Virus record (IMG/VR): IMGVR_UViG_3300001598_000053
Location: 1,029 to 65,028 of that record
Length of the DNA stretch: 64,000 nt
Reading direction: 5' to 3' (one strand)
DNA from: a virus
Shown one piece after another: positions 4,367 to 61,088 of this stretch; within the stretch, counting starts at the first letter, position 1; every line of letters begins with the position of its first letter. The translations under genes were made by a program, and so were the position numbers. The notes under the pieces were generated by a model, which saw only the letters and a program-made list of their open reading frames with translations, did not search any database and was not told the origin of the DNA.

Positions 4367-4489
4367 ACTGTATATTACTTTGGATGATATACACAATGCG
4401 CCTCAGATTGCGCATGTTGTTCATTTTAGTATATCGCACGCGAGACAGGAATCGTTTGCGGAATATCGAAAACTAACAGGAGAGCATAA

Positions 4490-4958
4490 AATGAAACACG
4501 TATTTTTATCAGAAAAACTAAACAAGTATTTCGAGTCTGAACTTGACTGCGTTAAAGCAGAGAAAGAACTCGAAGAAGCAGAAGCTAAGAAAAGAGAATT
4601 AGCCAATGCAAAGAAAGCCGAAGCAGCTAAAGTAGAAGATGCATTCAAGAAACTAAACGCTGCAAAGAAAAATTTAAATGAAGTAGCAGAAGCAGCTGGC
4701 AAAGCATATGTCGCTGCAGTTCGCGAAGCAAAGAAGATCTACGACGCCGCATTCGCAAATGCAAATAAGAGCAAAGAAGAGGCAGAAGCTGAATTCAACA
4801 AGCAATTAGAGATCTTCAACAAAGCACATCCAGAAGGATTCCATCTAACTCTCAGAGACGGCGATGTCGTTAAGACTTACTCAACCACTAGCAGAGTCGA
4901 TGCCTTCGAAGAGCTTAAGTCTTTAGAAGACAAACTCTGGAAAATGCTTTTGGGCTAA
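4490..4958 (+). CDS. K/A/E-rich coiled-coil hypothetical protein
   Basis: ORF; SD AGGAGA before ATG 4490 (longest ORF begins at 4380 without a ribosome-binding site). Confidence 0.5.
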
Positions 4959-5210
4959 AATAAAATAATTAAATTTTCTGAGGCAATTTAATTAAATTTA
5001 CAACCTATTTATTGTATAATATCTTAGGGAACAACAAAGCAGAATACATAAGCTTAGTTCTCCCGAATTCATAGTTCGTGGGAACTTCGCATATGTCCCA
5101 CACCTCCTTTCTGGAATACCGTGGTACGCATGATGTTAATCCTCCAGCATCCTGCGAGCAATGCCACGGTATTTTTTATTTAATGCGAGGAACTAAAGGA
5201 GAAATTTATT

Positions 5211-5636
5211 ATGGAAGAGAATCAAAATTTAAATAGAAGTCTAGATAATCTAGTAGAGTTAATGAAGACTGCTAATGAAGGAGAGCATGTAAGATTCCAT
5301 TTCATTAGAAACACGGCAGAGCTATCAGCAGTAAGACAGTTCAGAAGTAAGAATAAGAAAATTTCAAAAGCTTTTGGAAAGGTATTTAATACTGCACTAA
5401 AATCGTATAATGATATGGTGAAAGCTGGACGCGGACCAGTAGAAGATATAGTCGCAGTAAAGCAATTTGAGACCTGTAAGAACTATTATGCGGAAGAAGC
5501 CAGAATTTTAGATGATATGGTTGATGAGTACATGAATTATGTTCACAAAGGACACTTGATCGCCACCATCCTTAACATCTATCGCCCAGAAGAAGACCTA
5601 GTAGATTACAGAGATGGAGGATGGATCATATGGTAG
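5211..5636 (+). CDS. hypothetical protein
   Basis: ORF; SD AAAGGAGA. Confidence 0.55.
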   Translation: MEENQNLNRSLDNLVELMKTANEGEHVRFHFIRNTAELSAVRQFRSKNKKISKAFGKVFNTALKSYNDMVKAGRGPVEDIVAVKQFETCKNYYAEEARILDDMVDEYMNYVHKGHLIATILNIYRPEEDLVDYRDGGWIIW

Positions 5637-19801: not shown

Positions 19802-19891
19802 AAAAAATTAAAAAATATTTCATCAAAAGTGTTTACAAACCATGATTTGCATGGTATAATATATATGTAATTAAAAGGAGGAACCAAAACA

Positions 19892-20191
19892 ATGAAAAAA
19901 ATTAATTACATCGAATACAAACATTCAGTCGCACATGCCATCGAACCAAAGATGAAAGCACTCTGCTACAATGCTTTCATCGCTAAGAAGCCAATCAATT
20001 ACTGTTTTGCAATCGTCAAGAACGCAATCAACTCCAACGATGTCCGCTTCACTGAAAAAGAGCAATTAATCTACGATAACTTCAAAACAATCTCTGAACC
20101 TGCTCACTTGTATGCTTATGCGAAAGCAATCATCAGCAAAGCAGCTGAGACAGAAGTTTATGTTGATGATGACGGCGAATTAATCGCTTAG
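19892..20191 (+). CDS. hypothetical early protein
   Basis: promoter unit; SD AAGGAGG. Confidence 0.6.
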   Translation: MKKINYIEYKHSVAHAIEPKMKALCYNAFIAKKPINYCFAIVKNAINSNDVRFTEKEQLIYDNFKTISEPAHLYAYAKAIISKAAETEVYVDDDGELIA

Positions 20192-21049
20192 CATAGACAA
20201 TGGTTGGTAAACCAAGTCAAGCCGAGGGTTATGAGAAACTAACTTAGAGGCATTGCTAAAGCTTCCCTCCTTTCTGAATTAAATAATCTTACAGTGAGCA
20301 CAACGTAAAAGCGCTAACATACAAAGGCGGAACCGCACCTAGTCGACGAGGTATAGAAAGCGGGGCAACGCAACACCGGAACCTAAAGCTGACGATTGTC
20401 GCAACAAGTCGTTCGAACCGACGCTAATCATGGAATAGGCGAGTTGTGCCTGGTGTAAGGTTATTTAGTTAACCTGTTAACATTTTTCTTTACCTCCCTT
20501 TCTGAAAAGACCTCAACTTCAAGTTGGGGCCTTTTTATTTTCCATTGGAACTACAAACCAAAATCCTTCGCTGATCTTCGGTTCTGTCAGGATTACAATT
20601 CTAGTAAATTTTTACTGAGAAGAACAGAATCCAATGTACATGCACGATGTGCACGATCTGTACATTAACCCGCATGTGTAGTACATTTTTTCTAAATTTC
20701 TAATTGTGGATCAAAATTTAATATCTCACACTGTATTATATACTGTGAGTGCTCGAAGAGAGTATCCACCAGACGATACACTTTTCTCCTTTCGTCTGAA
20801 GAATCACAGGAACTCCTTTATTGCCGTTTGACTACGGCTGTAGACTCATGTTGAGTCTAATGACTCAAGTTTTCCTCCTTGCAAAAATACACTTAATAGA
20901 TTGTTTTTCATAATAACTGTGATTCAATTTGGGCATGACCATTTGGTTGTGCCTTTTTCTATTTTCTAAAATAATTTTATCAAAAGGATTTACAAAGGTA
21001 AGATTATATGATATAATATATATATGTAAAGATAAAGGAGATTACTAAT

Positions 21050-21292
21050 ATGTTTATTAAAGGCGATGTATTGAAAGTTAGACCTGAATGGTTAAGTGAA
21101 GAAGAAAAGAAAGATCCAAAATATGCCGAGATGGAATACTGTGTGAGAGACTGCTGGGACGGAAAAGTCGAAGTCATCTGTCAATCAAACACTTTCATCG
21201 GATACTCAATCTACACTTGGCCAGAATACACTATGTATAAAGTTGGTCATATCAGCCAAGAAGAGATTGAGAAAAGAATTTTCAAAAAATAA
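21050..21292 (+). CDS. hypothetical small protein
   Basis: promoter 20987-21020; SD AAGGAGA. Confidence 0.55.
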   Translation: MFIKGDVLKVRPEWLSEEEKKDPKYAEMEYCVRDCWDGKVEVICQSNTFIGYSIYTWPEYTMYKVGHISQEEIEKRIFKK

Positions 21293-23124: not shown

Positions 23125-23163
23125 CATCGAAAAGAACAAGAATAATAATCAATCATAGAACTC

Positions 23164-23205
23164 GTCTAGAGGCTCATAGAAGTCATCTAGACGAGTTTTT
23201 TATTA
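23164..23205 (+). terminator. intrinsic terminator TCGTCTAGA(GG..)TCTAGACGA + T6
   Basis: perfect 9-bp stem then TTTTTT, ends early gene block before ORF-free island. Confidence 0.65.
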
Positions 23206-23784
23206 TTCCTTGATAATTTATATTAAAGTCTCTTAAAAGCCGTTAGAACGCGAATTTTGGCATTGTGTATTTATATGAACACAAATGCCTTTATGTAGGG
23301 AAATCCAAATGTCTTACAGCACATTTTCCAACAATACGATCGTGGGAAATTTAGGAGGATTCATATTCTGCTTTTACTAAATTTCTGCGAAACGGTTGCG
23401 GATACAGGTCGGTCATCCCAGAGTTCTTACCGTGCACTGTACATGTAGGGAAATCCAGATGTATTTACTTTACTAGAATTCAGAGGGGCAGATTTTTGGT
23501 GGTCTAGGGTATAACCAAAAATCTGCCTTGGTCCTAGTAAAAATTTACTAGAGATGTTAATATGATCCTTCCCCTAAGGGGAAGGATCATATTAAAGTTT
23601 TGATTCGGGTAGACAGTGACAAACGGTTGAGAATTTTACTGAGAAGAATTCATGTACACCATACAGATCCCCACATGTGACTGTCTTGGGTTAGATGAAA
23701 AAAATAAAAAAGTTTTAATTTAGGGGTTTGCAAAAAACCCTTTTTATGTTATAATATACTTGTAAAGATAAAGGAGAATAAAAT

Positions 23785-25916: not shown

Positions 25917-25999
25917 AAAAACAAAACAAGACCTTCTTGATTGAAGGTCTTTTTATTTTCTGCTTCGGCAGTTTTATCCAACTGTGCCTAGGGGAGGAT

Positions 26000-26365
26000 T
26001 CGCATGATTGAATTTAGTAAATAGTAAATTTTCGTTGAGCGCACAGATCTGTGGAAGGATTCAGGATGGGGCTGTACAGAAGATGAAGTAAATTTAGTAA
26101 AGCCTGTCAGAACGATCTGAATCTGGGAAACGGTTCTGACAGACCCTGCTGAACCGCAAATTTAGTAAACTGTAATCCTGACCAAAGCCGGATACTGTAC
26201 ATGAGACTGTACAGGTCTGTCGCATGATGCTTCACAGAATTTAGTAAACTCAGCATCAACCTGGAAAGGAGTCATGGAAAATTTGGGATGGGCCTAGGCT
26301 GATCGATCCATCTTGGATTTCTAGTAAACGCTTACTATGATGACATCCAAGAATCCTCCTCCCCG
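26000..26365 (+). repeat. array of five ~75-bp units each ending in AATTTAGTAAA, bracketed by an 11-nt long-range inverted repeat (GGGGAGGATTC ... GAATCCTCCTCCCC)
   Basis: core motif at 26019, 26092, 26159, 26238, 26315 (degenerate); internal hairpins CTGTCAGAAC/GTTCTGACAG, CTGTACA/TGTACAG. Confidence 0.6.
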
Positions 26366-26491
26366 GATCTGAACAAAGGAGGAGTTCTAAAAAATATTTT
26401 AATTATTTTCATAAAAGGTATTTGCAGAACTTATAATATATGTTATAATAATATTGTAAGAAGGATAAAGAAAGAATAGAGGTAAACGAAT

Positions 26492-60338: not shown

Positions 60339-60770
60339 TTGGAAGGAAAACCAATCAAACCAGTAAAGTTAAGGTGCTACAATAACTATTAGGCTTGACC
60401 AAGTGGTAGTTAAATGAAGTAAAAAGTTAACAGCCTTAGCTTAAATATCTTCTGAATAACACCTTAGCAAGTGGAACTAGATGTGGTATGATGCTGACCA
60501 ACCTCCTATATAAGAACCTTATAAGGCATTAGGACGACCACTACTGAAATTGACGCGAGATAAAACTGAGATGGTGTCTCGGGGTAAGAAGCAAAAACAG
60601 AAGGGAACTGTAAACCTGGTGATTCTCAGCCATATAAATGTGGAAGCTTTAGAATTAGGCAGTACTAGATAACACCATTAAGTTAGTAGCGACAAGGAAC
60701 CGTCGTGAAACCAATATAGGAACCTTGTAGAGGTCGAGAAGGCAAGTAAAATAAGACTTGGCCCTCAAAT

Positions 60771-61088
60771 GCGGGACTGGCGAAATAGGTAGACGCAAGG
60801 GACTTTATTCCAAAATTTTCAAAAAAGAGTGCCAGAAGAGAAATCTTCTGAGTAGAATCTGGCTAACTCGGTTAACATCCTAATCGGAATACATTAGGAC
60901 AATCCCGAACTAAATCAGCAACATGCTGTAAATGCGTAGAGAGCATAGACCAGACGCCTAAATCTAATTTGACATGGCGATAATGTGCTCCAGACTACAA
61001 CATCTTAGATGGCTATAGCAATATAGAGTAGTAGGAAACTCCCTCGGGCGATGAGCCCGTGCCGGTTCGAGTCCGGCGTCCCGCACCA
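60771..61088 (+). tRNA. tRNA-Leu (anticodon UAA) interrupted by ~230-nt intron (60806-61035) between anticodon positions 34 and 35
   Basis: 5' half GCGGGAC-TG-GCGAAATAGGTAGACGC-A-AGGGA-CTT; 3' half AAAC-TCCCT + long variable arm CGGGCGATGAGCCCG + T-arm GCCGGTTCGAGTCCGGC + GTCCCGC-A-CCA; acceptor and anticodon stems pair perfectly across the two halves. Confidence 0.75.
60806..61035 (+). ncRNA. candidate group I intron in tRNA-Leu(UAA) anticodon loop
   Basis: Follows U34 of 5' exon, ends with G before A35; no ORF; contains CAGACTA (P7/R-like); size like known tRNA-Leu(UAA) group I introns. Confidence 0.5.

Follow-up and report, generated by a model that had tools for sequence, protein, structure and literature searches.

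How should 858 bp of DNA devoid of long open reading frames (ORFs) be understood when it lies in the early region of a phage? The question is raised by positions 20192-21049 of a 64-kb stretch (the window; positions 1,029 to 65,028 of IMG/VR record IMGVR_UViG_3300001598_000053) of the DNA of a large uncultivated phage in which every substantial ORF is on the plus strand. An earlier note had reported that this island contains no ORF of 60 amino acids (aa) or more, and this is borne out; the largest ORF inside is of 41 aa, and only two other stretches of the window that are at least 350 nt long are, like the island, free of 50-aa ORFs on both strands. It had also been described as GC-richer than its surroundings, which is true of the first half (0.44 over 20100-20550, compared with ~0.32-0.38 in the flanks) and untrue of the second (0.34-0.39).

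We find that the island is a composite of three parts: a non-coding RNA (ncRNA) that we term ncRNA-A, a spacer, and a candidate small RNA (sRNA), sRNA-B. The structured ncRNA that had been proposed as one candidate function of the island is upheld for positions 20192-20545, where there are homologs in two other lineages, covarying helices, and a motif resembling the 3′ tail of 16S rRNA (the anti-Shine-Dalgarno, or anti-SD, sequence) next to a terminator. Judged by this comparative evidence, 20192-20545 encodes a conserved structured ncRNA in at least three phage lineages, and the first 350 bases of the island are neither junk nor a dead gene.

ncRNA-A and its homologs

Among 5.8 billion proteins, just two other clusters were found for the 99-aa protein encoded immediately upstream of the island. 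In the first of these (P0002, 79% identity; contigs L011-L017) a homologous non-coding element of ~460 nt comes after the gene (10301-10760 in L011), and the promoter of the next gene comes directly after that. In the second (P0003, 56% identity; L018) only a plain terminator follows the gene. A homolog of the RNA is also present in L019 (15962-16410), a contig that was retrieved via the 80-aa gene downstream. There it lies between unrelated genes behind an extended −10 promoter of its own (TGGTATAAT), without the 99-aa gene. In the window and in L011 no terminator separates the 99-aa gene from ncRNA-A, the RNA being a 3′ extension of the gene from which it appears to be transcribed by read-through. 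Of the features expected of a discrete transcript, the terminator is present in all the homologs and the separate promoter in L019 only. Since L019 carries ncRNA-A between unrelated genes behind its own promoter, the RNA is probably a self-contained cassette that moves around in mosaic early regions.

No further copies of ncRNA-A were found by nhmmer and a covariance model (R1, built on the 5′ domain) in ~300 kb of related DNA, where R1 recovers only the known copies. Exact and degenerate DNA patterns of the conserved RNA blocks likewise gave no homolog when scanned against collections of viral, metagenome and genome sequences. One pattern match in a metagenome-assembled genome of the Chlamydiota was rejected as chance, scoring 11.6 bits with its helices broken. 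A covariance search against Rfam 15 matched the island to no family at the gathering threshold, neither csRNA, RsaE, 6S, tmRNA, RNase P, SRP and Y RNA/YrlA nor group I and II introns, ROOL/GOLLD and SSU rRNA. At E ≤ 10 the island gave three sub-threshold matches at the level of chance, and the L011 and L019 homologs gave only weak matches that were different and inconsistent. No element resembling tRNA or tmRNA was detected in the island by ARAGORN or Rfam.

Table 1. Coordinates of the features discussed, in window numbering. SD, Shine-Dalgarno sequence.
Feature	Position	Strand	Remarks
ncRNA-A, structured non-coding RNA of ~350 nt	20192-20545	+	From the stop codon of the 99-aa gene to the intrinsic terminator
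Conserved 5′ domain of ncRNA-A	20201-20255	+	Three helices, P1-P3
First anti-SD-like motif UUCCCUCCUUUCUGAA	20263-20278	+	Window copy only
Long closing helix, 5′ strand	20285-20304	+	Pairs with 20443-20462
Long closing helix, 3′ strand	20443-20462	+	Pairs with 20285-20304
Conserved anti-SD motif ACCUCCCUUUCU, like the 16S 3′ tail	20492-20503	+	Counterpart ACCUCCUUUCU in L011 and L019
Intrinsic terminator of ncRNA-A	20509-20543	+	A-tract, hairpin 20511-20529, T-run TTTTTATTTT
Spacer, rich in palindromes and short repeats	20546-20724	.	Motifs common to two other ORF-free islands
Dyad CTCACACTGTAT/ATACTGTGAG over extended −10-like TGTATTATAT (20731-20740)	20725-20750	+	Direct reading
Candidate sRNA-B, ~220 nt	~20746-20965	+	Terminator 20931-20954 and T-run TTTTTCTATTTT
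Promoter (TTTACA-17-TGATATAAT) and SD of early gene 21050-21292	20989-21049	+	Repeated early-promoter family D1
99-aa early gene	19892-20191	+	Promoter 19832-19860, SD AAAGGAGG
sRNA-like cassette	4959-5210		Promoter ~4998-5023, hairpin GTGGGAC..GTCCCAC, then CACACCUCCUUUCU

Structure, covariation and strand

From its 5′ end, ncRNA-A comprises a three-helix domain, an optional hairpin or insertion, a long helix, a linker that holds the anti-SD motif, and an A-tract followed by a hairpin and a U-run. The 5′ domain has ~85% column identity across the three lineages, and this extends even to the comparison of the window with L019, where the rest is unalignable. P1 is formed by 20201-20214 (GGUU-GGUA-AACC), P2 by pairing of 20218-20223 with 20249-20255, and P3 by pairing of 20226-20231 with 20240-20245 around the loop UGAGAAAC. 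All of the base pairs (17/17) are kept in all sequences, three of them through a compensatory change, one in each helix. P3 includes 2-3 G-U pairs that are compatible with the plus strand only. The P3 loop (20226-20245, and its equivalents in L011 and L019) has a conserved AUG-ARA-AAY-stop (MRN-stop or MKN-stop) with GAGGG placed 2-3 nt upstream, which may represent a start-stop mini-ORF or else a conserved motif of the RNA.

The long closing helix has 18 base pairs, all of which are kept, with four double compensatory changes and two changes from G-C to G-U. Direct reading shows that its inner 7 bp can be aligned to L019 (GAGCAUA/UAUGUUC). It encloses a multibranch core of 135-165 nt, in which a T-loop-like GUCG-UUCGAAC-CGAC hairpin can be picked out by eye only. 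Over the alignment of the window with L011, 12 of the 89 predicted pairs have compensatory double changes. Shuffled controls have 4.0 ± 1.5 such changes and none of 500 reaches 12, while controls in which the partner was slid give 0-3. Thus the examination of related phages for conservation and covariation yielded both, in the form of homologs of ncRNA-A with helices that covary.

The sequence of the terminator hairpin varies among the homologs, and the hairpin and U-run are retained in all. The strong terminator of the earlier note is therefore real, if slightly displaced (its stem is 20511-20529 and its T-run 20532-20543); some positions given there are off by 10-30 nt. There is no support for its being bidirectional, since the terminator scan scores the plus strand only; on the minus strand the tail of the hairpin is CUUUUCAG in the window, and there is none in L019. 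The strand of ncRNA-A is plus, being fixed by the G-U pairs, the U-runs after hairpins and the L019 promoter, and this is also the strand of all the genes of the window.

A motif identical to the 3′ tail of 16S rRNA

Three sequences resembling the 16S tail had been noticed in the island and all exist: TTCCCTCCTTTCTGAA (20263-20278), ACCTCCCTTTCTGAA (20492-20506) and TTCTCCTTTCGTCTGAA (20784-20800). To these we add two anti-SD-like sites that had been missed, ACTCCTTTA at 20812 and TTTCCTCCTTG at 20871. Read from the minus strand, AAGGAG occurs at nine sites in the 64-kb window, four of which are inside the 858-bp island where ~0.12 would be expected (Poisson P ~1e-5, by our own arithmetic). 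This clustering is far beyond chance. A fifth minus-strand AAGGAG, at 5104, falls in another sRNA-like cassette.

Which of these sites belong to the conserved RNA? The motif at 20492 is conserved and that at 20263 is not; in the position of the latter L011 has an insertion of ~110 nt and L019 has unrelated sequence. By contrast ACCUCC(C)UUUCU, which is identical to the 3′ tail of 16S rRNA, has been kept in each of the three homologs at a distance of 5-6 nt from the terminator hairpin that follows, although the adjacent sequence has diverged. One other account of the motif was considered and discarded. Pairing of CCUCC with the conserved GAGGG of the 5′ domain as the cause of its conservation would involve only 4 bp and is inconsistent between homologs. 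An anti-start-codon of the kind found in csRNAs is inconsistent across the homologs of ncRNA-A; CAU or CAC is present 9 nt upstream of the anti-SD sequence in the window and L011, and absent from L019.

On the other strand the same sites have the appearance of Shine-Dalgarno (SD) sequences, and they might drive small genes there, encoding leader peptides or a type I toxin and ending at a bidirectional terminator. Strong SD sequences are indeed correctly spaced to the starts of MPLS, MLTG and 23-aa and 29-aa ORFs, a near-consensus promoter-like site (TTTACA-16-TATAAT, minus strand 21030-21003) points into the island, and the AT skew goes negative within it. The mini-ORFs that the earlier note had seen after the SD-like sites (MPLS, MLTG and the 23/29-aa pair) thus exist, but they are not conserved in the homologs: where the window has MLTG, L011 has MLLIDI and L019 has nothing. 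A type I toxin-antitoxin locus would call for a hydrophobic, conserved peptide; those encoded here (4, 4, 23, 25 and 29 aa) are not hydrophobic, lack conservation and have no homology. The G-U pairs of the helices would become A-C on the minus strand, and promoters and T-runs are confined to the plus strand; on the minus strand the terminators have no T-run, and in L019 it is missing altogether. The site at 21030-21003 probably reflects a plus-strand promoter that is AT-rich and palindromic, of which it is the mirror image. Genes on the minus strand are contradicted by these data, and we regard them as very improbable.

The motif recurs in related phages

The motif is not confined to ncRNA-A. 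A module comprising CCUCCUUUCU and a terminator a few nucleotides later is found in non-coding cassettes of every related lineage retrieved; examples are L024/L028, L029, L030, the IMG/VR relatives L003/L007/L008/L010, and the window itself at ~5025-5185. CCTCC(C)TT is found on the plus strand 17 times in 255 kb of non-redundant DNA from related phages; 15 of these sites are within non-coding cassettes and 11-12 precede a hairpin and T-run. The combination of 16S-tail sequence and terminator is kept across phages with proteins that are only 25-50% identical.

The tail-like sequence of the window cassette 4959-5210 is identical to the 16S tail over 12 nt, and the terminator hairpin (5120-5185) has a second motif, AAUCCUCCAG, in its loop. 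The cassette is syntenic with sRNA genes of ~70 nt in L003, L008 and L010, lying between homologs of 4380-4958 and 5211-5636. In these sRNAs the single-stranded ACAAGUUUCCUCCUUUGUU and the UUCCUCC of the terminator loop are invariant, while covariation is seen in the 5′ hairpin and in the stem of the terminator. The small anti-SD cassettes of the relatives are independent units running from promoter to terminator, and the motifs of the small RNAs and sRNA-B are predicted to be unpaired with probabilities of 0.7-0.99.

The position of ncRNA-A behind the 99-aa gene brings to mind a cis-acting 3′ untranslated region (3′UTR). In the icaR mRNA of Staphylococcus aureus an anti-SD sequence located just upstream of the terminator in the 3′UTR pairs with the SD (PMC3868564). 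By analogy the anti-SD sequence of ncRNA-A might fold back onto the SD of the 99-aa mRNA itself, leading to translational repression or cleavage by RNase III. With that precedent, and with the RNA lying directly after the gene with no intervening terminator in both the window and L011, ncRNA-A is positionally a 3′UTR too. Moreover the window SD AAAGGAGG can form 8 bp with the first motif, and in L011 GGAGGU can form 6 bp with ACCUCC. Yet any strong SD would pair equally well, and the motif has no specificity for its own mRNA. In addition, the L019 RNA differs in having its own promoter and no 99-aa gene, the L018 gene lacks the RNA, and the small cassettes of the relatives run independently. 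We consider cis regulation of the icaR type rather unlikely.

Where might the motif have come from? In L024 (12995-13215) ACACACCUCCUUUCUAAAAAC directly precedes two tRNA genes, an arrangement resembling a 16S gene end with its spacer tRNAs, and this hints that the motif may be derived from captured ends of rRNA operons. It might then be asked if the island is simply a functionless captured fragment of a host rRNA operon, a suggestion to which the L024 arrangement (ACACACCUCCUUUCU just upstream of tRNA genes) lends itself, or otherwise a degraded or recoded protein gene. In the relatives L019 and L024 in-frame TGA seems to be a sense codon, and reading TGA in this way opens a 117-codon minus-strand frame at 20612-20965 of the window. 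But that frame requires five TGA codons and is not protein-like, TGA is a stop codon in the window, and nothing protein-like opens in the island when TGA, TAG or TAA is read as sense. Stop-to-stop pieces of at least 45 codons in all frames of this island and that at 23.2-23.8 kb have no match in Pfam or PHROG at E ≤ 1. There is no Rfam rRNA match, and identity to 16S rRNA is limited to 11-12 nt. The degraded gene is rejected on the outcome of the six-frame and alternative-code searches. The earlier note had named six-frame protein homology, or the lack of both transcript and conservation, as counting against its reading; we find no such homology, and conservation with covariation that argues for function. 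Either form of relic is extremely improbable.

The second half of the island

Positions 20546-20965 have fold z-scores of −5.5 for the plus strand and −3.25 for the minus strand. Neither this segment nor the ORF-free island at 23214-23784 has homologs in any of the related phages retrieved.

The spacer contains GTCAGGATTAC at 20586, TTCTAGTAAA at 20599-20608, TTTTACTGAGAAGAA at 20610-20624, TGTACA (of the TGTACA/GTGCAC type) at 20635 and 20659, and TGCACGAT twice, at 20641 and 20650. This set of motifs recurs in the islands 23214-23784 and 25917-26491. The 15-mer TTTTACTGAGAAGAA had been recognized before as shared between two islands; that is correct, with 20610-20624 and 23634-23648 as its actual positions. 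T[TC]TAGTAAA occurs at 17 sites in the 64 kb, nine of them within the three ORF-free islands.

Such a sequence may be acting as DNA, with the palindromes, TGCACGAT, repeats of the TTCTAGTAAA type and the AT-rich 20546-20750 constituting an operator, a replication origin or a partition site. The concentration of T[TC]TAGTAAA sites in the islands is in keeping with this, as are the five phased copies at 26012-26319, the occurrence of GTCAGGATTAC, TGTACA and TTTTACTGAGAAGAA in common, and the overlap of the dyad with a −10-like element. The short repeats, palindromes and AT-rich stretch of 20546-20724 are features of an origin, but there are only 1-2 copies of each motif. The cumulative GC skew keeps rising at the island with a local dip only and no strand switch, no replication protein was identified nearby, and the motifs could equally be modules of RNA hairpins. 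As the first half is accounted for as RNA, the replication origin entertained by the earlier note is unsupported there. A regulatory or replicative DNA element would be limited to the spacer, not the whole island, and even there we think it unlikely.

The palindrome around TATTATATA is real, at 20725-20750. It is a candidate promoter and operator for sRNA-B; its TGTATTATAT is also the −10 element of the syntenic sRNA gene in L003, and was missed by a consensus promoter scan because there is no −35 element. Downstream, UUCUCCUUUC lies in a hairpin loop (20784-20793), followed by ACUCCUUUA (20812-20820) and UUUCCUCCUUG (20871-20881). The predicted probability of these three being unpaired is 0.72-0.99, compared with a mean of 0.46. 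The segment ~20746-20965 would be a second sRNA, unique to this phage, with three exposed anti-SD-like motifs.

The other two ORF-free islands have features of their own. That at 23214-23784 follows the strong terminator (~23161-23205) of the upstream gene, and contains a 23-nt direct repeat ATGTAGGGAAATCCA[AG]ATGT at 23293 and 23443, a perfect 19-bp hairpin (23557-23595) and several TTTACTAGA/CTAGTAAA palindromes. It has no Rfam match, no protein homology and no homolog in the relatives. The island at 25917-26491 has AATTTAGTAAA/TTCTAGTAAA in five phased direct copies, 68-80 nt apart (26012, 26092, 26160, 26239 and 26319), and downstream of each copy is a hairpin that differs from the others. 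CAGGAUG-like GGA motifs are also present, as is a CCUCCUCC/GGAGGAG hairpin (26355-26385). An iteron array, an origin and an RNA of several modules are all conceivable.

Comparison with known regulatory RNAs

In Gram-positive bacteria RNAIII and RsaE pair with SD regions and block binding of the 30S subunit. The C-rich or UCCC sRNAs of Firmicutes (RsaE/RoxS, the 3′ hairpins of RNAIII, LhrC) have pyrimidine-rich anti-SD seeds in the loops of hairpins or in single-stranded linkers, and one RNA often has several of them. There is a resemblance to these in sRNA-B and in the terminator-loop motifs of sRNA2-type cassettes, but here the seed is the full 16S tail (ACCUCCUUUCU) and not a short run of C, and there is no similarity in sequence or in Rfam.

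The csRNAs of streptococci combine an unpaired anti-SD stretch with an intrinsic terminator, and have been proposed or shown to block translation initiation (PMC3091779). The ~70-nt sRNAs of L003, L008 and L010 share this layout of 5′ hairpin, unpaired anti-SD and terminator. ncRNA-A differs in its length of 350-450 nt, its large conserved folded body and the lack of a conserved anti-start-codon (CAU). The phage promoters are early σA-type (TTTACA-17-TGnTATAAT or extended −10) and not dependent on CiaR, there is no Rfam match, and the RNAs are encoded by a large phage of lytic type rather than a streptococcal chromosome.

A number of phage and prophage sRNAs (P1/P7 c4, DicF, SprY, AsxR) act by base pairing, some of them at ribosome-binding sites (PMC12197685). 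Each targets one specific mRNA or sRNA through a unique seed, and none of those covered there is described with a generic 16S tail, or as a multi-gene set in a large phage of virulent type. A search of the literature for phage RNAs carrying the 16S tail or an anti-SD sequence found nothing directly relevant. The only weak Rfam alignment is with mmgR/suhB (alpha-r8; RF00519), at 20.9 bits (E = 0.16; gathering score 41). The likeness lies in a CCUCCC motif followed by a terminator hairpin, which is generic; the 5′ hairpin is unmatched and the family is alphaproteobacterial. By analogy, then, ncRNA-A would work like an anti-SD riboregulator of the csRNA or RsaE type. It appears to stand outside every described family because it fails the Rfam models, is larger by a factor of 3-5, and has neither a CiaR promoter nor a conserved anti-AUG.

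Genomic setting

The host is probably Firmicute-like. The closest protein relatives are in phages of Bacillus, Clostridium and Streptococcus, at ~35% identity. No resemblance to any GenBank phage was found at the DNA level, BLAST of the island for near and distant matches against 50,697 phage records gave zero, and no relatives of the proteins flanking the island were found in IMG/VR. One SRA assembly contains an identical 9-kb contig. Recognizable proteins of the window include NrdD, an SNF2 helicase, and proteins with Big_2 and fucosidase domains. ARAGORN finds six tRNAs only, at 59.7-63.9 kb, and at the gathering threshold Rfam finds six tRNAs and nothing else in the whole window. Between tRNA genes, ~650 nt at 60339-61000 are GC-richer and have no tRNA, Rfam or long-ORF assignment.

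Positions 8-30 kb form a series of small ORFan genes, each downstream of a near-identical strong promoter in the module TTTACA/TTTGCA-17-TGnTATAAT, ATATATGTAA and SD. Here and in L011, L019 and L021 the early regions are extreme mosaics of small ORFan genes and RNA cassettes, differing in order between phages, with each cassette behind a copy of one promoter and SD module of ~70 nt. As the same genes and RNA cassettes are reordered behind copies of the same module, promoter-mediated shuffling of cassettes is suggested.

All three stop codons are in use in the window, with TGA terminating 9 of 85 long ORFs. In relatives TGA is apparently a sense codon (L019 7500-8400; L024 5026-5940 and 13050-13135). 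Genes for a GIY-YIG endonuclease (KYG[TGA]DAF, EQY[TGA]INYY) and a metallophosphatase cross in-frame TGA at Trp-like positions, and L024 encodes a tRNA with the anticodon UCA.

Discussion

What might these RNAs do? We propose that the island is a cluster of plus-strand ncRNA genes in the early region of the phage, the RNAs of which pair with SD regions and block the 30S subunit, and we put the chances of this at about even. In such a mechanism ncRNA-A and sRNA-B would pair in trans with the SD regions of host and/or phage mRNAs. This would occlude the site, preventing 30S binding and halting translation initiation. The folded body of ncRNA-A might add stability, offer a platform for protein binding, or control the exposure of the motif. 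The observed part of the case consists of the conservation, position and strand of the motif and its predicted accessibility in the small RNAs. From the comparison with known RNAs we infer that SD occlusion in trans is the likeliest mechanism, which would involve pairing with target mRNAs and perhaps a role in host shut-off, and the RNA of the island could be the 'sponge' that had been imagined for it.

Several points weigh against this proposal. A folded body of 350-450 nt exceeds the needs of a base-pairing sRNA. The CCUCC of ncRNA-A is predicted to be partly paired (unpaired probability 0.25-0.42), its predicted partner being a different internal GAGG in each homolog. The SD sequences of the phage itself, mostly AAAGGAGA, are also complementary over 7 nt, and a duplex scan against the translation-initiation regions of the phage revealed no selective target. 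There are three lineages of ncRNA-A, and effectively two for the core, so that the covariation rests on few independent events, and the structure was tested on the very sequences that had served to derive it. Lastly, sRNA-B and the spacer have no homologs, and the promoter of sRNA-B is only a −10-like element.

The size of the body leads to a different idea, in which the RNA is a decoy of the 16S tail that titrates a factor recognizing it, the folded body being the binding platform. Examples would be a defence toxin that cleaves rRNA, a maturation nuclease, or a protein of initiation or of the ribosome. The match to a Firmicute-type 16S tail does extend over 11-12 nt, beyond the CCUCC core (ACCUCCUUUCU in ncRNA-A, CACCUCCUUUCU at 5101), and simple base pairing leaves the large conserved structured domains unexplained. 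A decoy might nevertheless be expected to include a hairpin like helix 45 upstream of the motif, which is not present, and no candidate partner was found, the neighbouring proteins having no matches in Pfam or PHROG. Nor does it sit well with the short sRNAs of the relatives, which carry the motif with almost no other structure. We judge the decoy distinctly unlikely.

Occlusion of SD sequences might also be part of something larger. Conceivably the whole lineage, including relatives of jumbo size and those with TGA as sense, deploys a battery of 16S-tail RNAs that reprogrammes translation initiation globally during infection. ncRNA-A would be the largest of the battery, and its RNAs would compete with ribosomes for strong host SD sequences, or act as decoys for a factor that acts on the anti-SD tail of the ribosome. 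We offer this as a speculation of which we are rather doubtful.

The ncRNAs of phages are poorly catalogued, particularly those of virulent phages with hosts of Gram-positive type. ncRNA-A is a family missing from Rfam that has covariation support, defined ends and a functional motif that can be tested. The 16S-tail motif also provides a simple signature with which sRNA genes can be sought in metagenomic phage genomes. If occlusion of SD sequences, or decoying of a ribosome-directed factor, proves true it would be a new layer of translational takeover, and if a battery of such RNAs is deployed this would be an RNA-based strategy of host shut-off or anti-defence not yet described for phages. 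The phage may thus use RNAs that carry the 16S tail to interfere with translation start sites.

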